Shown here in pieces: positions 6,687 through 58,528 of a DNA stretch of 64,000 bases. The translations under genes and the position numbers were made by a program. The first letter of the stretch is position 1. Each line of letters opens with the position of its first letter. The notes beneath the pieces were generated by a model. It worked only from the letters and a program-made list of their open reading frames with translations, searched no databases and was not told the origin of the DNA. This stretch comes from Candidatus Hydrogenedentota bacterium (GTDB lineage Bacteria; Hydrogenedentota; Hydrogenedentia; Hydrogenedentales; JAEUWI01). The stretch is taken from NCBI GenBank assembly GCA_034669905.1, contig JAXMOL010000033.1:8690-72689 (forward strand), written 5' to 3'.

Positions 6687-8927
6687 TCATTTTTCGGTCT
6701 CCATCACGATGCGGAGTCCGAAGCCCACGCCGGGCGCATAGCCATAGCGCGCCGCCGAGCGAATAAAGGCGGCCTTGCTTTTGGACTGGCCGCCCCGCAA
6801 TACCTTAGCCCCGTTTCCGGGCGGCCCCGTTGGGTCGGTCACGGGCTCCGTGCTGTAGCGTCTTCCCACGTTGTCGAGGCAATACTGGGCCTGGTTGCCG
6901 TGCATGTCATAGAGTCCCCAGGGGTTGGGCGGATACTGGGCCACGGACACGTTCTTACCGATGTAGTTGCCCGCCGGATTGAAGCGGGTTGCTTGTTTGC
7001 CGTCAAAGTTCGCCTGGTCCGTGGAGATGGTGTCCCCCGTGTAGAAGGCGGTGGTCGTGCCGGCGCGACAGGCGTACTCCCATTCCGCTTCGGTGGGAAG
7101 GCGGAAGGTGCGCCCGGTTTTCTGGCTCAGCAATTCGCAGAACTCAACGCCCTCAAACCAGGTCACTTCGTGGGCCGGAAAATTTTCCTGCCCTTTCCGG
7201 GTGCGCCGTTCCGTGGGCCCCATGACGGTGACATACTGACGGTTGGTGATGAGGGTCGTGCCCATGAAGAAGGGCCGGCTGATGGTGACGGGCTGTTGGG
7301 GGTGTTCTTCCGGTTCGCCGCCCTCACTCTCCGGGGAGCCCATGAGAAAGGTGCCCGCGGGAATGGGCGCGAGGTCGAGGTGGATCGTGTCGCCAAGCCA
7401 TACGCGCGCGATGCCGTCCTGCGCGTCGATGCGCACGTCCATGGCGGCAAGCTTGGCATCCCGCGCCGCTTTGTGCGCCTCCGCTTCGGCCTTCATGCGC
7501 GCGTCGTAGGCGTTCTTTCCGTCCATGGTCCGCTGTAGGGCCGCCTGCTGTTGCGCGAGGAAGGGAGCCTTTTCCAGCTGCACGTTTTCCTCGGGATGGC
7601 GGGGGTTCGTACCGTTCAGGTATTCCTCGAGGTTGGGGTAGCCATCGCCATCGGGATCGTTGAGGTAGTCCTCCATGGCGACCGTGTCGAGGTCGTGTTC
7701 CAATTCCCAGGCATCCGGCATGCCGTCTCCATCGGTGTCCGCTGGTGGGTCGTCACTCACCAGCTCGGGCCAGCCGCCCACGTCCTTCGGGGAGTCGATG
7801 ATGCGCCCCGTGCCGGTGCGGATTTCTTCCAGGAGCCGTGCGTCGGCGCTATCGCGTCGGGGCAAGGTCGCGCCGGATTCCGCCAGCACCCTTTCGAATG
7901 CTTCTGAAGCGCTCTCCGTGGCAACGGCGACGGTGGGAAAAGGGGCATCCACGGTGACGATGTCTCGTATGGTCTCCGCTTCAAATCCGCGGAGGGGTTT
8001 CAGAAGCAGGTGGTTGTTGGCTGTTTCATCGGATTGCCCTTCCAGCACATTGCCCTCAAGAAAAATGCGGGGTGCATCATCGCCGGGTTCAAAGACATAG
8101 GTGCGCACGGACTTGCGAGTGGACGGTCCCGCCTTGAAGTAGTTGTTGATGTAGTTGATGAAGCCCGGTCCCTGGGTGGTGTAGCCACCGCGATAGCCCC
8201 AGTTGTAGACGATGTTGTTGCGGAAATCGAGGACGATATTGTTGACCCGGGCGTTGCGCGCGGCGTTGTGGGCATAGATGTTGTGGTGGAGCGAGAAGCC
8301 CCCTTTTCCATCGAGGATGGAGCCCTTGCTGTGCTCGCCTTTCGGGTGAAAGGAGCGGGAGAGGCCCTCGGCGATGATGCTCCACTGAACCGTGATATTG
8401 GATGCGCCGAAGGTGCTGAGCACTTCGTCGACGGCCCAGGTCATGGAGCAGTGATCGAGGATGACGTTGTTGCCGCCAAAAATGCCTACGGTCAGTTGTT
8501 CTTCCTGCGGGGCGTCACCCGAGCGCATGCGCAGGTGTCGCAGGATAACATCGTGGGTTGCGACGACGAACATGTGGTCTTTGAGCGCAATGCCATCGCC
8601 GGGTGCGGTCTGTCCGGCGATGGTGACGAAGGGATGGCGCACATAGAGGTCTGTTTTCAGGGCGATGGTGCCACTGACGCGAAACAGAATGTAGCGGGGC
8701 CCTTTGGCATCGATGGCCGCGCGCAGGCTCCCGGCCACAGGGCCTTCCTCGCCGGGCACATAGTCTTCCAGGGTGGTGACGAAGTGTATGGAGCCGCCCC
8801 GGCCCCCCGGCGTGGTGGCGCCGAATCCTTCGGCTTCGGGAAAGGCGCGAAGCAGGTGCTCCTGTGCGGGCACTGCGGTTGCACAGAGAAAGAGTAGGAA
8901 GACAGCGGGCCATCGGTGGTACAGCAT
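6687..8927 (-). CDS. Secreted pectate lyase (PL1-like beta-helix) fused to an FGE-sulfatase-like domain
   Basis: Signal peptide; AFPEAEGFGATTPGGRGG, DHCSMTWAVDE; Ca-binding DTDGDGMPDAWE / DPDGDGYPNLEEY; C-terminal FRLPTEAEWEYACRAG and PNPWGLYDMHGN. Confidence 0.85.
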   Translation of the reverse strand: MLYHRWPAVFLLFLCATAVPAQEHLLRAFPEAEGFGATTPGGRGGSIHFVTTLEDYVPGEEGPVAGSLRAAIDAKGPRYILFRVSGTIALKTDLYVRHPFVTIAGQTAPGDGIALKDHMFVVATHDVILRHLRMRSGDAPQEEQLTVGIFGGNNVILDHCSMTWAVDEVLSTFGASNITVQWSIIAEGLSRSFHPKGEHSKGSILDGKGGFSLHHNIYAHNAARNARVNNIVLDFRNNIVYNWGYRGGYTTQGPGFINYINNYFKAGPSTRKSVRTYVFEPGDDAPRIFLEGNVLEGQSDETANNHLLLKPLRGFEAETIRDIVTVDAPFPTVAVATESASEAFERVLAESGATLPRRDSADARLLEEIRTGTGRIIDSPKDVGGWPELVSDDPPADTDGDGMPDAWELEHDLDTVAMEDYLNDPDGDGYPNLEEYLNGTNPRHPEENVQLEKAPFLAQQQAALQRTMDGKNAYDARMKAEAEAHKAARDAKLAAMDVRIDAQDGIARVWLGDTIHLDLAPIPAGTFLMGSPESEGGEPEEHPQQPVTISRPFFMGTTLITNRQYVTVMGPTERRTRKGQENFPAHEVTWFEGVEFCELLSQKTGRTFRLPTEAEWEYACRAGTTTAFYTGDTISTDQANFDGKQATRFNPAGNYIGKNVSVAQYPPNPWGLYDMHGNQAQYCLDNVGRRYSTEPVTDPTGPPGNGAKVLRGGQSKSKAAFIRSAARYGYAPGVGFGLRIVMETEK

Positions 8928-52384: not shown

Positions 52385-53749
52385 CTAGCGCGCGCACCAC
52401 GCCGTCAGACTCGCCTCCAATATCCCCAGCGCTTCGTCCATTTCTTCGCGACTGATCGTGAGGGGCGGCACGAGGGTCAAGATATTGCCCATGCTCACCT
52501 TGAAGCTCAGTCCCCGGGAGAGGCAGCCATAGAGCACCTGCTCCGCCGCTTCCGTGGCCCGCGCACCCGTCTTGGGGTCCTTTAATTCCACCCCCATCAA
52601 CAGCCCCAGCCCGCGTACATCGCCGATGATGGGGAAGGTGGCTTGCATTTCGCGGAGCCGCGTCATCGCATAGTCACCCATGGCCGTGGCCTGTTTCAGC
52701 AGGCTTTCCGATTCAATAGTCTCGATGGTGGCCAGGGCGGCGGCGCAGGCCACGGGACTCTTCTCGTGGGTGTAGTGGCCCAGCGCACGGTCGGCCATGG
52801 CGGTGTTGAGTTCTTCCCGGGCGATGAGGGCCGCAAGGGGAAAAATGCCGCCGCCAAGGCCCTTGCCAATGACCACCATGTCGGGCACTACGTCGTAGTG
52901 TTCGTGAACGAAGTAGGCACCCGTCCGCCCGAGGCACGTGGGGATTTCATCTAGTATGAGGAGCGCCCCATGGCGGTCGCAGGCGGCCCGCACTTTTTTC
53001 CAATAGTCGCGGGGCGGAATATAGGGCGAGCTGCGCACCGTCTCTGCGATGACCGCCGCCACATCGCCTTCCTTCTCCAAGACGTACTCGATGTAGTCCG
53101 CACACTGAAGGTTGCACACCGTGCCACAGTTAAAGGGACAGCCTGTGGGGTCGGGCGGGGGGACGTGCTCCGTGCCGGGGAGGAGGGGTCCCATGCCGTT
53201 GCGGAAAATCGCCTCACCGCCAATGGAGATGGCATCCAACGAGGCCCCATGAAAGGAATCCCACAGGGAGATGGTTTTGTGCCGCCCGGTAGCCGCCCGG
53301 GCGAGTTTGAGGGCCATGCCGATGGCCGCCGTTCCGCCCGGTGCAAAGAGGACGCGGTTGAGATCGCCCGGCGCTTTTTCCACCAGTTTCTTCGCCAGCG
53401 CGATAGCGGAGCGGTTGGTGTAGCGCCGGGGACAAAAGGGGAGCTCGGCGAGCTGCTGTTGGATGGCCGCCACGACGCGGGGATGGCCGTAGCCCACCTG
53501 GTGGACCGAGTTGCCGTGAAAATCGAGGATCTTCCGCCCCTCCACATCGTGGAGGTAACTGCCGTCGCACCCATCAAGGGCGTTCAGGCAGGGCGTGGAG
53601 AGGGACTGGTGCAGAAAGTAGCGGGCGTCCTCCGCCAACAGGGCCTCGGTATCTTCGTGCAGATGGGTGGCGGCCCACTCCGACCGGGCAGGCGACAGGT
53701 TGAGGTCACCTTCCGAGCGGAGCTGGTCCAGGGAGTCATGGTCCGTCAT
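52385..53749 (-). CDS. pbfA: Class III PLP enzyme, PbfA-like (R)-1-hydroxy-2-aminoethylphosphonate ammonia-lyase
   Basis: SEGDLNLS, FLHQSLSTPC, DFHGNSVHQVGYGHP, LPFCPRRYTN, SFHGASLDAIS, LDEIP..GRTG, GKGLGGG, LGHYTHEKSP. Confidence 0.75.
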   Translation of the reverse strand: MTDHDSLDQLRSEGDLNLSPARSEWAATHLHEDTEALLAEDARYFLHQSLSTPCLNALDGCDGSYLHDVEGRKILDFHGNSVHQVGYGHPRVVAAIQQQLAELPFCPRRYTNRSAIALAKKLVEKAPGDLNRVLFAPGGTAAIGMALKLARAATGRHKTISLWDSFHGASLDAISIGGEAIFRNGMGPLLPGTEHVPPPDPTGCPFNCGTVCNLQCADYIEYVLEKEGDVAAVIAETVRSSPYIPPRDYWKKVRAACDRHGALLILDEIPTCLGRTGAYFVHEHYDVVPDMVVIGKGLGGGIFPLAALIAREELNTAMADRALGHYTHEKSPVACAAALATIETIESESLLKQATAMGDYAMTRLREMQATFPIIGDVRGLGLLMGVELKDPKTGARATEAAEQVLYGCLSRGLSFKVSMGNILTLVPPLTISREEMDEALGILEASLTAWCAR

Positions 53750-53847
53750 GGCAGGGCGCTTTCGGTTGAAGGATGCAGCATGGCTACAGCGTAATAAACC
53801 GATTGAATAGCAAGTCAAGTTTCTAACGAGTATCAAAGATACGCTGC

Positions 53848-53895
53848 GGGTGCCACCCTTACGCGGAGGAGCGAAGCGGGGGAGCTTATGGGTGC
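53848..53895 (-). repeat. 48-bp element identical (inverted) to 31767-31814
   Basis: Direct base-by-base comparison gives 48/48. Confidence 0.92.
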
Positions 53896-53940
53896 GGGGT
53901 GCCACGGGCAAGCCCCGGAGGGCTCGCCCGTGTCCCAGTC

Positions 53941-55104
53941 CTACACGCGCACCACCGCTTCCGAACCCACCACCTGCTGGACCAAGGCGTCCAGATCATC
54001 ACCATCCACCGCACCCGGCACCGTGTCCGCAAAGCGTACGAAGGCTTCGTAGAGCCGGTCACGGTCACCCTCACCGACCACGTGGCCCCGTTGGCGCGCC
54101 ATATGGACCACGGCGTTGCGGCCCGACCGTGCCGTCAAGACGAAGTCGTGGCCCGCCCGCCCGATGAGCTCCGGGGCGACAAACTGATAGTTTTCCGCGG
54201 CTTTCAAGATGCCGTCCTGATGGATTCCCGAACTGTGGGTGAAGGCATTGCCCCCCACGATGGCACGGTTGGGCTGGATGGGCACCCCGGTGACGGCGGC
54301 CACCTGGGCGCTGATGGCACGGAGCTGGTCCAACTGAATGCCCGAATCCGCCACGTCTTTCAACGCGAGGATCACGGCAATTTCTTCCAGCGCCGTGTTG
54401 CCTGCCCGTTCGCCAATGCCATTGACCGTGCACTCCACCTGGCGCGCACCGGCCTTCACGGCGGCGAGGGCATTGGCCGTCGCGAGGCCCATGTCGTTGT
54501 GGCAGTGGGCCGACACGATAACGTCGGGACCGAGAAATTGGACCATGTCATAAATCATGGGGCCAAACTCATCGGGTGTCATGCAGCCCACCGTGTCTGC
54601 AATGTTGATGCGCGTGGCACCGGCTTCCACCGCCGTGAGGGCGCATTGGCGGAGGAACACCGGGTCGCTCCGCGTGGCATCTTCCAGACTGAACTGGACC
54701 TCGCGGGACCACCGCCGTGCCCGTTGGACGCTTCGCGTGATAATGCCCAACAACGTCGCCCGACTGACCCCCAACTTGTGGGTCATGTGGATGTCGGAGC
54801 TGCCAATCACCAGGTGCATGACCGGGTGGGTGGCTTCCTGCAGGGCTTCGCCGGCCGCATCGATATCCCTGTCGACACAGCGGGACAAGGCGGCCACTTC
54901 CGCACCCTGCACGGCCTGGGCAATGGTACGGACCGCCATACTATCACCGGGGGACGACGCGGGGAAACCCGCTTCAATGGTCGCCACCCCCAGGGCCTCC
55001 AGGGCCACGGCGATGGCACATTTTTCCTGAATGTCTATATGAACTCCGGGCGTCTGTTCGCCATCGCGGAGTGTGGTGTCTAAAACCCGAATTTTCTTTC
55101 GCAT
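53941..55104 (-). CDS. leuA: 2-isopropylmalate synthase, short form lacking the C-terminal regulatory domain
   Basis: DTTLRDGEQ, IEAGFP, HCHNDMGLATAN, GIGERAGN, HSSGIHQDG; only 387 aa; Leu-rich leader upstream. Confidence 0.88.
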   Translation of the reverse strand: MRKKIRVLDTTLRDGEQTPGVHIDIQEKCAIAVALEALGVATIEAGFPASSPGDSMAVRTIAQAVQGAEVAALSRCVDRDIDAAGEALQEATHPVMHLVIGSSDIHMTHKLGVSRATLLGIITRSVQRARRWSREVQFSLEDATRSDPVFLRQCALTAVEAGATRINIADTVGCMTPDEFGPMIYDMVQFLGPDVIVSAHCHNDMGLATANALAAVKAGARQVECTVNGIGERAGNTALEEIAVILALKDVADSGIQLDQLRAISAQVAAVTGVPIQPNRAIVGGNAFTHSSGIHQDGILKAAENYQFVAPELIGRAGHDFVLTARSGRNAVVHMARQRGHVVGEGDRDRLYEAFVRFADTVPGAVDGDDLDALVQQVVGSEAVVRV

Positions 55105-55182
55105 GCTGCACTTTCCATAGTAGTCGGTTAAGGGATACTCAAACGGCGCGTGATGGGGTGCGTAGCAGGCGATGGAATCGGG

Positions 55183-55203
55183 TTACCGCAGTTCCACGTC
55201 CAT
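55183..55203 (-). other. Mini-ORF MDVELR* with perfect Shine-Dalgarno
   Basis: AAAGGAGG (55219-55212), 8-nt spacer, ATG GAC GTG GAA CTG CGG TAA. Confidence 0.45.
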
Positions 55204-55256
55204 ATTACGTCCCTCCTTTCTAACGTTGTGTTTTCGGGGGGCCATCCCCGATAAAC

Positions 55257-55290
55257 AAAAAAAATGGCCACGGGCGTGTAGCCCGTGGCC
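55257..55290 (-). terminator. Attenuator terminator upstream of leuA
   Basis: GGCCACGGGC-TACAC-GCCCGTGGCC followed by A and 8 T on the minus strand. Confidence 0.9.
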
Positions 55291-55314
55291 TCTATACAAA
55301 CCCCAGTGGGGTTG

Positions 55315-55413
55315 CTATCGAATAAGAATTCGAGGCACAACGGAGCTACGCTCCTCCAGCAGCAGGAGGAGTGGGAGACGTAGTTCCAGGCTATGCTTCG
55401 AATTGGTAAACAT
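55315..55413 (-). CDS. Leucine attenuator leader peptide (32 aa)
   Basis: MFTNSKHSLELRLPLLLLLEERSSVVPRILIR*, with AAGGA RBS and five consecutive Leu codons, ending 24 nt before the terminator stem. Confidence 0.8.
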   Translation of the reverse strand: MFTNSKHSLELRLPLLLLLEERSSVVPRILIR

Positions 55414-55783
55414 GGTAAAAAATTCCTTGAGCCATAACTCTACCACAGGTTTTCCGGCATTGCAAACCGATTTCGAATAGTGAATTGAGAATGATGAATT
55501 GAGAATGTGAGGGCGATTCAATCCCCCGGCCTTTCCGAAGGGGACGCCTACTCGTGAAAATTCGTATTCATTCGTGGTTCCCCCCAAAGAAACAGCCCGG
55601 CCCGCCATGGCCTACTTCCAAAAGCTAACGTTGGAATACCCGCGGCGCAAACCCTGAGAAAGCGCCGTCCATCGTGCTACATTTTTTGGACACGAAACGT
55701 GGCGCGGGATTACAATGGAAGCGTCCTGACCGAGCGGCATCCGCACGCCGGCACACCCAAGTTACTGCCCGGAAAGAAGTACC

Positions 55784-58528
55784 ATGGCCCTTAAATTCAC
55801 TGCTCTCCTCTTCGCCTTTCTTATTGGCGCCACCTCCCTTTTTTCAGCCCGTGCGACGGCGCTGGAGACCGCTGATTTGCGGTGTGAATACCGTCCGAAT
55901 CCCCTGGGAATTGATACCGCGATTCCGCGCCTGAGTTGGAAGCTACGCAGCGAGGGTCGGGGCGTGACGCAACGGGCCTATCACATTCTCGTGGCCTCGT
56001 CGCAAGACCTGTTGGACAACAATCAGGGTGACCTCTGGGACAGTGGCAAGGTCGAAAGCGATCAGTCGGTGCACGTCGCGTATGCGGGCACGCCCCTCAC
56101 CTCCCGTCAGTTCTGCTTCTGGAAGGTCCGTATCTGGAATCAGGACGACCAACCCAGCGCATGGAGTGAGGCCGCCCGCTGGACCATGGGCTTGTTGTCG
56201 CCCAATGACTGGTCGGCCGCGTGGATTGGCGTGGACTGGATGGAGGACAACGCGGGCGCCCTGCCCTGGCTACGCACTTCCGTCTCGCTGGAATCCGTCC
56301 CCGAGCGCGCCATGGCCTATGTCTGCGCCCTGGGGTATTACGAGCTCTACATCAATGGCCAGAAGGTGGATGACCACGTGCTTTCGCCGGCCGTGAGTGA
56401 CTACAGCAAGCGGGGGCTCTATTTGACCCATGATATTGCCCCTTACCTGAAGTCCGGCAAAAACAGTATCGCCATCTGGCTCGGCCGGGGCTGGTCGCGC
56501 CTCCTGCTGGAAAAGGCGTCGAAGAAGGCACCCTTCGTGCGCGCCCAATTCGAGCTGGGTACCCACACCGACAAGCCGCTCATCGTCACGACCGACGCGA
56601 ACTGGAAAGTGCACCCAAGCCCCATTACGCCGCTCGGTAAACTGCAGAGCGGGCAGTATGGCGGGGAGCGTTACGACAGCCGCCTGGAAATCTCCGACTG
56701 GGCCGCGACGGATTTTGACGATAGCAACTGGGACCATGCCGTCGTCTACACCCCGCCGACGCCGATCATGGCCGCCCAGATGTCCGAGCCCAACCGGGTC
56801 CTGGGCGAGGTTCCAGCCCAATCGGTAACGCGCCAGGAAGACGGAAGCTACCTGGTAGACATGGGGAAGAACTTTGTGGGCTGGGTGACCTACCACTTCC
56901 CCGAAGGAGGGCCGGCAGGTTCGGAAGTTCACCTGGAATACGGCGACAAATTTCGCGACGATGGATCGCTTCAGTCCTACAGCCAGGTGGATGAATACGT
57001 ATTTCGTGGTCCGGAAGCCCAGACCTTCAAAACCCGCTTCAACTACCATGCCTTCCGCTATATGATTGTGAAGGGTCTGGAGGCGGCGCCGAAGCCCAAG
57101 GACATCACGGGCTATTGGATATCCACCGATTACACCCCGACGTCCACCTTCACCAGCTCCAACCCGTTGCTGAACTGGATTTATGAAACTTCCAACTGGA
57201 CCTACCGCTGCCTGACCCTCGGCAGCTACGTAGTGGACTGTCCCCACCGCGAGCGCCTGGGCTATGGCGGCGACTCGGGCACGTCGATGGAAATGGGCCT
57301 GACCAACTTCAACACCGCGCCCCTCTACAGCAAGTGGCTCGCCGACTGGCGCGATACCCAGGCCCCCGATGGCGACCTGCCCCACACGGCACCCAGCGCC
57401 CAGATAGCGGGCGGCGGCCCCGCCTGGAGCGGCATCTGCATCACCATGCCGTGGCAGGTCTACCGCCAATATGGCGATACGCGCGTGTTGGAAGAGAACT
57501 ACCCCACCATGAAGCGCTGGCTCGCCTTCGTGGAAACCAAGATGAAAGACGGTATCCTCGCGCCCTACTACGGCGTGGGCTACACGAGTTTGGAGTGGTC
57601 TTTCCTGGGCGATTGGGTGTCGCCCAACCGCGGTCAGGGAGCGGGTAGCCGTGTGGACGACAACTCCACGCTCTTCTTTAATAACTGCTACTACGTGCAC
57701 AACCTGCAGCTTGCGGCCCAGACGGCCACGGTGTTGGGCAAGACGGAAGACGCGGCAAACTACACCCGCCAGGCAGAGGCCCTGGCCGCACGCCTTCATG
57801 AACGTTTCCTCAATCCCGATGGCGTGACCTATGCCAACGGCGAACAGCCCTACCTGTCCATGCCCCTGCTCTTCAACATCACCCCGGAAGCCAAGCGTCC
57901 CGATGTAATGGCCGCCTTGCGCGAATCGATTCTGGTGAAAGAAAAAGGCCACCTGAATACCGGTATGCACGGCACCTACTACATGATTCGCTACCTGACC
58001 GACACGGACCAAAATGATCTGGTCTATTCCATCGCGTCGAAGCGGACCTTCCCCAGCTGGGGCTTCATGCGCGAGAACGGCGCCACGACCATCTGGGAAG
58101 AATGGAACGGGGACAACTCCCACATTCACGACACCCTCATCTCCGTGGGTATGTGGTTTGTTCAGGGGCTGGCGGGCATTCTGCCAGACGAAGGGCACCC
58201 GGGTTTCAAACACTTCTTCATCCAACCCGCCCTCGTCGGCGACTTGACCCACGTATCCGGGACGCACGACACGATGTACGGCACCATCGAATCCCATTGG
58301 AAGCGCGAAGGCGACACGGCCACCTACACGGTTGTGGTTCCGCCCAACACCACGGCCACCATGATGATCCCCGGCGATGACCCGGGCGCGATAATGCTGG
58401 ACGGCAAGCCCCTGGCCGAGAGCTCCCTGGTAAGTGCTGTGAACGTGGAGGCAGGGCGCGTACGTGGGACCCTGGCTTCGGGTACCTACGAATTTACGGC
58501 CCCCGCGCCCCCGTTGGCCCAACCCTAG
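55784..58528 (+). CDS. Alpha-L-rhamnosidase, GH78
   Basis: Signal peptide; LRCEY..PLGID..PRLSW, ALGYYELYING, DMGKNFVGW, DCPHRERLGYGGD, GATTIWEEW. Confidence 0.93.
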   Translation: MALKFTALLFAFLIGATSLFSARATALETADLRCEYRPNPLGIDTAIPRLSWKLRSEGRGVTQRAYHILVASSQDLLDNNQGDLWDSGKVESDQSVHVAYAGTPLTSRQFCFWKVRIWNQDDQPSAWSEAARWTMGLLSPNDWSAAWIGVDWMEDNAGALPWLRTSVSLESVPERAMAYVCALGYYELYINGQKVDDHVLSPAVSDYSKRGLYLTHDIAPYLKSGKNSIAIWLGRGWSRLLLEKASKKAPFVRAQFELGTHTDKPLIVTTDANWKVHPSPITPLGKLQSGQYGGERYDSRLEISDWAATDFDDSNWDHAVVYTPPTPIMAAQMSEPNRVLGEVPAQSVTRQEDGSYLVDMGKNFVGWVTYHFPEGGPAGSEVHLEYGDKFRDDGSLQSYSQVDEYVFRGPEAQTFKTRFNYHAFRYMIVKGLEAAPKPKDITGYWISTDYTPTSTFTSSNPLLNWIYETSNWTYRCLTLGSYVVDCPHRERLGYGGDSGTSMEMGLTNFNTAPLYSKWLADWRDTQAPDGDLPHTAPSAQIAGGGPAWSGICITMPWQVYRQYGDTRVLEENYPTMKRWLAFVETKMKDGILAPYYGVGYTSLEWSFLGDWVSPNRGQGAGSRVDDNSTLFFNNCYYVHNLQLAAQTATVLGKTEDAANYTRQAEALAARLHERFLNPDGVTYANGEQPYLSMPLLFNITPEAKRPDVMAALRESILVKEKGHLNTGMHGTYYMIRYLTDTDQNDLVYSIASKRTFPSWGFMRENGATTIWEEWNGDNSHIHDTLISVGMWFVQGLAGILPDEGHPGFKHFFIQPALVGDLTHVSGTHDTMYGTIESHWKREGDTATYTVVVPPNTTATMMIPGDDPGAIMLDGKPLAESSLVSAVNVEAGRVRGTLASGTYEFTAPAPPLAQP

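Follow-up and report, generated by a model that had tools for sequence, protein, structure and literature searches.

A predicted leucine attenuator upstream of a LeuA paralog without a regulatory domain in Hydrogenedentota

The locus and its leader

The locus described here lies in a 64,000-nucleotide stretch of DNA (the window; positions 8,690 to 72,689 of contig JAXMOL010000033.1, assembly GCA_034669905.1, Candidatus Hydrogenedentota bacterium) and consists of a leader that encodes a leucine-rich peptide and ends in an intrinsic terminator, a second conserved module (module 2), and a gene for a short protein of the LeuA (2-isopropylmalate synthase, IPMS) family, P0001 (Table 1; all leader, gene and module-2 coordinates given here are window positions on the minus strand). 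An earlier note on this DNA had claimed a leucine attenuator with a ribosome-binding site (RBS), a 32-aa leucine-rich peptide, an antiterminator and a 10-bp GC terminator followed by U8, and this was borne out by the sequence, the folds and the covariation described below. The leader is very probably a ribosome-mediated transcription attenuator of the trp/leu/his type, which would sense leucyl-tRNA and control a monocistronic IPMS paralog devoid of the regulatory domain. The earlier note overlooked module 2, i.e., a strong Shine–Dalgarno (SD) sequence, a mini open reading frame (ORF) and a hairpin between the terminator and the gene.

Table 1. Features of the leader, module 2 and the short LeuA-family gene (uORF, upstream ORF; MFE, minimum free energy)
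Feature	Position	Strand	Description	Basis
Promoter-like site	55437..55465	-	TTGCAA (55465-55460), 17-nt spacer ending in TGG, TAGAGT (55442-55437)	read from sequence
SD-like sequence	55424..55428	-	AAGGA, 10 nt 5′ of the leader ATG	read from sequence
Leader ORF (uORF1)	55315..55413	-	MFTNSKHSLELRLPLLLLLEERSSVVPRILIR; ATG at 55413, 32 codons, TAG at 55317-55315	ORF translation
1:2 hairpin (anti-antiterminator)	55327..55404	-	leader coding region paired on itself	MFE folds
Antiterminator 5′ arm (region 2)	55332..55349	-		fold of the RNA 3′ of a stalled ribosome
Small hairpin	55299..55313	-	AACCCC-ACU-GGGGUU, directly 3′ of the leader stop codon	MFE folds
Antiterminator 3′ arm (region 3)	55278..55292	-	overlaps the terminator 5′ arm and loop	fold, covariation
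Intrinsic terminator	55257..55290	-	GGCCACGGGC-TACAC-GCCCGTGGCC; 10-bp stem (9 GC pairs), 5-nt loop, A, U8	terminator scan
Second SD	55211..55220	-	GAAAGGAGGG (GAAAGGAGGUG in most relatives)	alignment
Mini-ORF (uORF2)	55183..55203	-	ATG GAC GTG GAA CTG CGG TAA (MDVELR*)	alignment
Hairpin A	55172..55197	-		MFE folds
Short LeuA-family gene (P0001)	53941..55104	-	387 aa	ORF, domain and family profile searches

Nine of the 32 codons of uORF1 specify leucine, with Leu codons at 55389-55387, 55383-55381 and 55377-55375 and five in a row at 55371-55357. The columns of the promoter-like site (TTGCnn-N17-TGGTAnAnT) are conserved in an alignment of 26 loci; the site was not listed by the promoter scan, its 8/12 matches falling under the scan threshold. 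Relatives show a purine-rich AGGA or GAGG, read by eye in the alignment, 6-12 nt 5′ of the aligned leader start. The terminator is among the finds of the terminator scan, and the count for the region is 2, no more than in shuffled sequences (mean 2.4). A 97-aa ORF at 55315-55608 (ATG at 55608), which holds the leader in frame and which gene callers may annotate, was rejected as a gene because the conserved promoter-like site lies inside it and because a 97%-identical relative (L008) carries unrelated upstream sequence. Between the U-run and the second SD lies a further GC hairpin, CGGGG-AUGGCC-CCCCG (55250-55235), at the place of which most relatives have, by eye only, a hairpin of other sequence.

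The conservation of the leader was analysed with an alignment of 24 leaders (A1), from which a covariance model was built, and with a realignment of the 52 matches of this model, which represent 48 distinct leaders (A3). In A1, 85.1% of the cells of the terminator state are paired (36-46% when slid) and 24 of 45 pairs changed on both sides, which was reached by 0 of 500 shuffles. The antiterminator is paired in 79.8% of cells (25-51% slid) with 8 of 15 pairs changed on both sides, a count matched in 3 of 500 shuffles. Because the genomes are related by descent, these shuffle controls overstate significance. The corresponding values in A3, an alignment that is fitted to the terminator-state structure of the model and therefore favours that structure, are 87.7% and 77.6% paired, with 34/45 and 10/15 pairs changed on both sides. 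Taken singly, helices 1 and 2 are paired in 86.0% and 76.1% of cells in A1 and in 87.2% and 83.6% in A3, where 16/22 and 4/7 of their pairs changed on both sides. The main 13-pair antiterminator helix is 84.9% paired in A1 (7 pairs changed on both sides) and 82.4% in A3 (9/13), and the terminator helix 98.3% in A1 (6/10) and 97.9% in A3 (8/10); the small hairpin after the stop is 74.6% paired in A3, with all six of its pairs changed on both sides. Within the terminator, one column of A1 alternates between G and A and covaries with two partners, pairing as GC:12 / AU:11 with the 3′ arm and as UA:9 / UG:7 / CG:3 with region 2. Such three-way covariation is the signature that would be expected of an attenuator.

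The coding capacity of the leader is kept as well. An ORF of 26-32 codons with 4-12 leucines, beginning at the aligned start, is found in 46 of the 48 distinct leaders, in agreement with the conserved Leu-rich uORFs before orthologs by which the earlier note had proposed to check its claim; the script read it in 44, and the peptides of two leaders given out-of-frame starts by the script (L130 and L017) were taken from a separate reading. The remaining two leaders, which have no ORF, are degenerate orphans. The leucine density reaches up to 7 in an 8-codon window among the relatives, and a Leu-rich uORF is present within 600 nt upstream of the short orthologues in 18 of 19 loci. The peptide is also conserved at the amino-acid level (NSKH...VPRI), the conserved residues coinciding with paired stem bases. 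Judged by its conservation among relatives, the leader is a feature far beyond chance.

The 196-nt leader folds with an MFE of −76.1 kcal/mol (z = −5.57), and 0 of 200 shuffled sequences were equally stable. Folding of the alternative structures gave mutually exclusive 1:2, 2:3 and 3:4 helices, which carry compensatory changes. The base of the 1:2 hairpin in the MFE folds is formed by AAUUCGAAGCA and UGCCUCGAAUU, and its top by the Leu codons CUCCUCC and their partner GGAGGAG. The antiterminator was obtained by folding only the RNA that lies 3′ of a ribosome halted on the consecutive Leu codons, up to the point before the 3′ arm of the terminator is made. Two single-base bulges interrupt the pairing of its arm CCGTTGTGCCTC with GAGGCCACGG, and folding extends this pairing to GUAGC/GCUAC. 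This antiterminator (region 2:region 3) has an energy of −24.0 to −32.5 kcal/mol vs. −23.9 kcal/mol for the terminator alone, and the 1:2 hairpin together with the terminator has an MFE of −71.4 kcal/mol. The pause-like hairpin that the earlier note had described, GGAGCGTAGCTCC, does exist at 55354-55342, but it appears only as a local alternative when region 1 is masked and is not a conserved element, its bases belonging to the 1:2 helix in the conserved model.

The Leu-codon stretch CUC CCA CUC CUC is itself the strand that pairs with GGAGGAG, and part of the Leu-codon conservation is therefore structural. This would fit a leader that switches between terminator and antiterminator in response to a protein, a tRNA or a small ligand, the Leu-rich frame being a by-product of the CUCC/GGAG pairing. 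The near-invariant sequence of the lower stem, which exceeds the needs of pairing, points the same way, as do the Leu-codon leaders of Streptomyces leuA and ilvB, which one study reports as non-classical, with the actinobacterial LEU element proposed to be protein-bound (PMC1262725). However, 46 of 48 leaders preserve the start codon, the frame, the length (26-32 codons) and a stop just after region 2, and Leu codons are still enriched where the upper helix differs in sequence (LRLRLALLL, LRLRL). Moreover, both leaders that have no ORF are orphans, downstream of which no LeuA-like gene was found, and no Rfam model, leucine leaders, T-box and riboswitches included, matches window positions 53000-56500 at E ≤ 1. 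A trigger other than the translating ribosome is hence considered very unlikely.

The short enzyme and its distribution

P0001 comprises an HMGL-like barrel (PF00682, 276.8 bits) and an HCS_D2 domain (PF22617, 58.3 bits) and no other domains. A LeuA_dimer domain (PF08502) was not found in P0001, and a search of the genome gave matches to this domain only on contigs C5 and C63, i.e., in the canonical LeuA and the citramalate synthase (CimA). The protein covers positions 1-381 of the 494-position LeuA model, so that the description of the 387-aa enzyme in the earlier note, as a LeuA lacking the leucine-binding regulatory domain, held. Elsewhere in the same genome are the canonical LeuA of 507 aa with LeuA_dimer, CimA and leuC, which all exceed their cut-offs (727, 714 and 762 bits, respectively), and a leuB-like gene whose 349 bits fall just short of the cut-off of 353. 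The earlier note had further suggested that control was shifted from allostery to attenuation. The attenuator and the missing domain support one half of this suggestion, but because the genome also has a full-length LeuA with the regulatory domain as well as CimA, the short LeuA is an accessory paralog and no replacement of allostery. Among the sampled relatives, a second, full-length LeuA match was found in 17 of the 18 other genomes with the short form, the exception being a genome that is 91% complete (G002). The short orthologues in 24 other loci measure 378-407 aa, with one of 358 aa, and their downstream neighbours vary.

The family scores of P0001 are highest for LeuA (NF002086, 453.4 bits), far above those for NifV (312) and CimA (184). 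Among solved structures, IPMS catalytic domains come closest, with 3rmj in first place (5.9e-90), and the top four are deposited as 2-isopropylmalate synthase; the fourth of these, 6e1j, is presumably a plant methylthioalkylmalate (MAM) synthase. P0001 nevertheless falls under every curated LeuA cut-off (453.4 < 532 for NF002086; 434.1 < 598.7 for TIGR00973), largely because the C-terminal ~115 model positions are missing. Of the 112 proteins extracted, 57 entered a quick tree over the 385 catalytic residues, after removal of near-duplicates and most archaeal sequences; support came from the Shimodaira–Hasegawa-like approximate likelihood ratio test (SH-aLRT) only, and the tree was rooted at its midpoint. 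In this tree, the 21 short proteins group together (SH-aLRT 100). A long stem of 0.8 changes per column leads to their clade, which lies outside the cluster formed by the full-length bacterial LeuAs sampled, those of Hydrogenedentales included. To judge from these comparisons, the short enzyme is an old, separate paralog, extra and apparently attenuator-controlled, beside the canonical LeuA.

The scores and the tree also bear on whether the enzyme is another member of the family, with a citramalate, homocitrate or new 2-oxoacid condensation activity, in which case the leader would tie another pathway to leucine status. The shortfall below all curated cut-offs, the monophyly and long stem of the short clade outside the sampled LeuAs, and the presence of LeuA and CimA in the genome would all suit such an enzyme, as would the genes found under the same leader in some lineages, which are shorter still (304-336 aa) and diverged (e.g., L146). 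Set against this are the LeuA models, which score far above NifV and CimA, the deposited function of the top four solved relatives, the origin of most of the missing score in the missing C-terminal positions, and the leader itself, whose Leu specificity makes sense for an enzyme that raises leucine supply. A function outside IPMS is therefore regarded as unlikely. Since P0001 scores below the LeuA cut-offs and lies on a long branch outside the sampled LeuAs, we infer IPMS activity, i.e., the condensation of 2-oxoisovalerate with acetyl-CoA, only as the best reading of the family, the matches in the Protein Data Bank (PDB) and the Leu-specific leader.

Of 133 Hydrogenedentales genomes searched with the covariance model, 68 contain the leader, mostly as a single copy, and these represent 42 of 64 genera. 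A search with P0001 at E ≤ 1e-105 found a near-full short LeuA in 40 of the 133 genomes, and a comparison of the two result tables showed the leader in every one of these 40, on the contig and strand of the gene and 125-748 nt upstream of it. In a separate search of 41 genomes, short LeuA orthologues were present in 8/8 genomes of the same genus (74-97% identity) and in 10 more of the order (53-61%). The long gaps between leader and gene are insertions between the terminator and the gene (582 nt in G003, 382 nt in G032, 748 nt in G092). These insertions of 380-750 nt (loci L015, L016 and L045/L152, respectively) separate the attenuator from the second module or from the gene, and those of L015 and L016 hold short palindromic repeat units such as CATTCCCGCGAAAGCGGGAATCC. 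In its own genome, modules 1 (the leader) and 2 were found by nhmmer nowhere else than at the short leuA locus; no Leu-rich uORF was seen by eye before the canonical leuA, cimA or leuS, or found by script before leuC or leuB.

The leader occurs in 28 genomes that have no P0001 match at E ≤ 1e-105, 13 of which were inspected. In G100, the LeuA-like gene behind it has an internal deletion, and a second copy of the leader stands before amidohydrolase genes; in G111, the gene is cut by the contig end; and in G101, G123 and G126, shorter LeuA-like open frames follow (304-336 aa, 36-43% identical). Only LeuA remnants follow in G023 and G022, and no LeuA-like match was found in the flank fetched from G068, G025, G017, G016 and G067. 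In G088, a weak match to the leader model (E 6e-5) precedes a leucyl-tRNA synthetase gene. This leader (L153; G088:C47, 3930-4092, minus strand) has its own uORF, MKPASERGHGFDLLRLLGVRARCASQAGR, and a GC hairpin with a U-run, and the synthetase was identified by Pfam; leuS of another genus may thus be under the control of a Leu attenuator.

The same distribution bears on another reading, in which the leader would chiefly be a small RNA or small-protein gene in its own right, ending at its own terminator, and the downstream gene would be expressed from elsewhere. The leader survives orphaned or before unrelated genes (L147, L150, L151, L154, L156), and its peptide is conserved in amino acids, as might be expected of a stand-alone gene. 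However, the leader lies directly upstream of the gene and on the same strand in 40/40 short-LeuA genomes, the antiterminator, which would be purposeless in a stand-alone small RNA, covaries, the conserved peptide residues coincide with paired stem bases, and no separate promoter-like site was called by the promoter scan between the terminator and the gene. An independent gene is accordingly the least credible of the alternatives and extremely improbable.

Some of these loci show features of their own. The orphan leaders (L147, L150, L151, L154 and L156, with L148 and L149) stand before unrelated genes or LeuA remnants; the genes that follow are DUF2147/DAO, amidohydrolase and no-family genes and, in one case, a LeuA remnant and then TonB/TolB-like genes, and two orphan leaders have no uORF or no terminator. 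This pattern suggests, as far as sequence comparison goes, that the short leuA was lost repeatedly. Loci L132, L140, L144 and L146 have intact modules 1 and 2 before the LeuA-like frames of 304-336 aa, which may either be in decay or encode enzymes whose function has changed; L146 has the motif DTTLREGFAG where others have DTTLRDGEQ. A short LeuA with one in-frame TGA was seen in two genomes of one genus (G024:C23:3760-4899 and G053:C99:687-1829).

Downstream of the short leuA, the next gene (52385-53749, minus strand) is 190 nt away and encodes a PbfA-like enzyme of class-III aminotransferase fold, which matches the model of PbfA, the (R)-1-hydroxy-2-aminoethylphosphonate ammonia-lyase, with 700 bits, over the cut-off of 525; it belongs to phosphonate catabolism, unrelated to leucine. 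Just downstream of the short leuA lies a repeat of ~48 nt (53848-53895). With 53831-53945 as query, blastn-short returned 59 rows within the genome, many of which lie on other contigs and measure 47-51 nt at 86-100% identity, and contigs of RNA libraries join the repeat to many different flanks, so it looks like a dispersed element resembling repetitive extragenic palindromic (REP) sequences.

The predicted switch and the second module

Under the favoured reading, i.e., attenuation by the ribosome in response to leucyl-tRNA, transcription would start near 55430 and a ribosome would then translate the 32-codon leader. When Leu-tRNA is plentiful, the ribosome would reach the TAG and mask the GCCUC of region 2, the terminator 3:4 would form, and transcription would stop at U8; with no translation at all, the 1:2 hairpin would form and the terminator would win again. 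When Leu-tRNA is scarce, the ribosome would stall on the Leu codons at 55389-55357 and mask region 1, leaving region 2 free just outside its 3′ edge, such that region 2 would pair with region 3 before the terminator 3′ arm is made and the polymerase would read into the gene. The leader stop lies 12 nt past region 2 (GCCUCGAAUU) and about 3-12 nt past it in relatives, the latter spacing having been read by eye in part of the alignment rows. With generally accepted ribosome footprint sizes, a ribosome terminating at this stop would cover GCCUC at 55336-55332, the antiterminator core, whose counterpart in region 3 is GAGGC at 55292-55288. The product would most likely add feedback-insensitive IPMS activity under leucine starvation, beside the canonical LeuA.

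Several points weigh against this reading, in addition to the family-score shortfall of P0001, the position of the short clade in the tree, and the two caveats attached above to A3 and to the shuffle controls. The terminator is present in every equilibrium MFE fold of the full RNA, even with region 1 masked, and therefore the switch must be kinetic and co-transcriptional, a step that is inferred with assumptions from E. coli; the coupling of transcription and translation in Hydrogenedentota is likewise presumed. The regulatory Leu codons are common ones, CUG making up about 36% and CUC about 32% of the Leu codons in long open frames. The Streptomyces leuA leader, which has Leu codons, is reported not to have acted as a classical attenuator (PMC1262725). 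Lastly, RNA contigs of a close relative, 95-99% alike, from four metatranscriptome runs of one study (contigs only), cover parts of 54420-55221 and nothing over the leader; one RNA contig of 244 nt spans the leuA start and uORF2. These contigs have no bearing either way on termination, and DNA carry-over is possible.

Module 2 lies between the terminator and the gene and follows one pattern in 26/26 distinct loci: GAAAGGAGG(U)G, 6-8 nt, AUGGA, then NNG, G(R)(R) and CUN. The GGAGG of the second SD is invariant in all 26 loci, with a spacer of 6-8 nt to the AUG, and so are AUGGA, GG and CU of uORF2, codon 5 being CUN (Leu) with all four CUN codons in use; the peptide thus starts M-[D/E]-x-[G/E]-L. 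The module is present even in L015 and L045, where the attenuator lies beyond the 600-nt flank and was found later, further upstream. The length of uORF2 varies: 6 codons in 12 loci, the present one included, 11 codons in 1 locus, and 55-85 codons in 13 loci, where it extends 70-121 nt into leuA, with a frame offset of 2 in 12 of the 13.

In relatives, the start and codons 2-4 of uORF2 pair with a downstream CCCGAAUCC in hairpin A, while in the present fold the stem starts at codon 3 (55197). On the alignment of module 2 (A2), 75% of the cells of hairpin A are paired vs. 21-46% when slid; the covariation is weak, with 3 pairs, a number reached by 348 of 500 shuffles, and RNAalifold on A2 gave only 4 pairs at −0.74 kcal/mol, the 3′ half aligning poorly. 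The CGAAUCC arm is conserved in coding and non-coding contexts alike, which points to a constraint at the RNA level. A further hairpin B, suggested by MFE folds and hiding the leuA RBS, was not supported by the shuffle test: the paired probability of the RBS (−14..+3) is 0.59 vs. 0.55 after shuffling the intervening RNA. By locus, L020 and L049 stand out (1/30 shuffles each), as does L019 (2/30), and L010, L018 and L047 behave in the opposite way (29/30).

Module 2 (the second SD, uORF2 and hairpin A) probably adds a translational step. It is conceivable, though on balance doubtful, that the locus forms a two-stage leucine lock, in which uORF2, with its perfect SD and its place within hairpin A, would sense leucine again or otherwise gate the translation of a feedback-insensitive enzyme that would be harmful if leaked. 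The fixed first five codons of uORF2 together with its range of 6-85 codons would fit a short stalling device that acts through the nascent peptide or the Leu codon, a kind that, to our knowledge, has not been described for amino-acid biosynthesis leaders. Beyond the attenuator core, what is new about the locus lies mainly in module 2.

The attenuator as predicted extends classical ribosome-mediated attenuation to the uncultivated candidate phylum Hydrogenedentota. In strength, the covariation of the leader equals the support on which many curated RNA families rest, and the alignment and model are ready for a new leader family. The leader also serves as a functional label, tying a divergent LeuA-family paralog without the regulatory domain to leucine supply. 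The pair of enzymes suggests a division of labour between two isozymes, a full-length one that is presumably feedback-inhibited and a short one that would presumably escape feedback and be produced only when Leu-tRNA runs short. Isopropylmalate synthases with natural feedback resistance are of interest for the production of leucine and isopentanol.

Comparison with known leaders and short enzymes

No literature on a leader peptide or on isopropylmalate in Hydrogenedentota was found in a search outside subscription journals, and papers on Hydrogenedentes and leucine appeared unrelated by title and the start of the abstract; this fits the statement in the earlier note that it knew of no such attenuator described for the lineage, as does the lack of an Rfam match. 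The leader of the enterobacterial leu operon, which we take to be the Rfam family Leu_leader (RF00512), resembles the present one in its short ORF with consecutive Leu codons, its 1:2, 2:3 and 3:4 helices and its terminator before the first leucine gene. It differs in that no homology of sequence or structure connects the two (no Rfam match, E ≤ 1), and in that the leader described here precedes one accessory short leuA rather than a leuABCD operon, has more Leu codons, spread over 11 positions, and is followed by a second uORF module 3′ of the terminator. The leader is thus a fresh case of classical ribosome-mediated attenuation without an Rfam counterpart.

Short leader ORFs also act in translational attenuation of the ermC and cat-86 type. 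Module 2 resembles these in the strong SD and very short ORF of uORF2, its conserved N-terminal peptide and the hairpin over its own start; unlike them, it has no antibiotic context, an alternative pairing with the downstream RBS is not supported, and uORF2 ranges from 6 to 85 codons.

In a study of Corynebacterium glutamicum, a leader peptide with four consecutive Leu codons was predicted directly before leuA and read as a transcription attenuator (PMC4046766). The two systems share a Leu-codon leader peptide directly before leuA; in C. glutamicum it precedes the IPMS gene leuA, whereas here only the paralog without a regulatory domain has a leader and the canonical LeuA has none. The ilv-leu attenuator peptide of Staphylococcus aureus is similar in being a conserved Leu-rich peptide with an RBS, a terminator and a predicted antiterminator, and Leu depletion and leader mutations raise its expression (PMC5794164). 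Unlike the present leader, which is predicted and serves one gene, it is experimentally supported, stands before a nine-gene operon, contains Ile and Leu codons, and acts beside CodY.

The actinobacterial LEU element is likewise a leuA-specific leader with a Leu-codon uORF and a conserved RNA structure near the leuA RBS, and it is the nearest analogue for the translational layer (PMC1262725). It is described there as pairing the Leu codons with the leuA SD through a pseudoknot and a base stem, with no terminator, whereas a terminator/antiterminator switch is present here. At the present locus, a terminator follows the Leu uORF, and the paired probability of the leuA RBS hardly departs from that of shuffled sequence, as given above.

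The short enzyme also has parallels. Plant MAM synthase, apple citramalate synthase, LeuA2 of Leptospira (NF042434) and the IPMS of Sulfolobales (NF041069) consist, like P0001, of the barrel and subdomain without a Leu-binding domain. Both short-IPMS models match P0001 (243 bits for NF042434 and 330 bits for NF041069), below both cut-offs, and P0001 is therefore a member of neither family. We know of no such IPMS-family enzyme without a regulatory domain behind a Leu attenuator. The plant enzymes among them are reported to escape feedback (PMC7826400).

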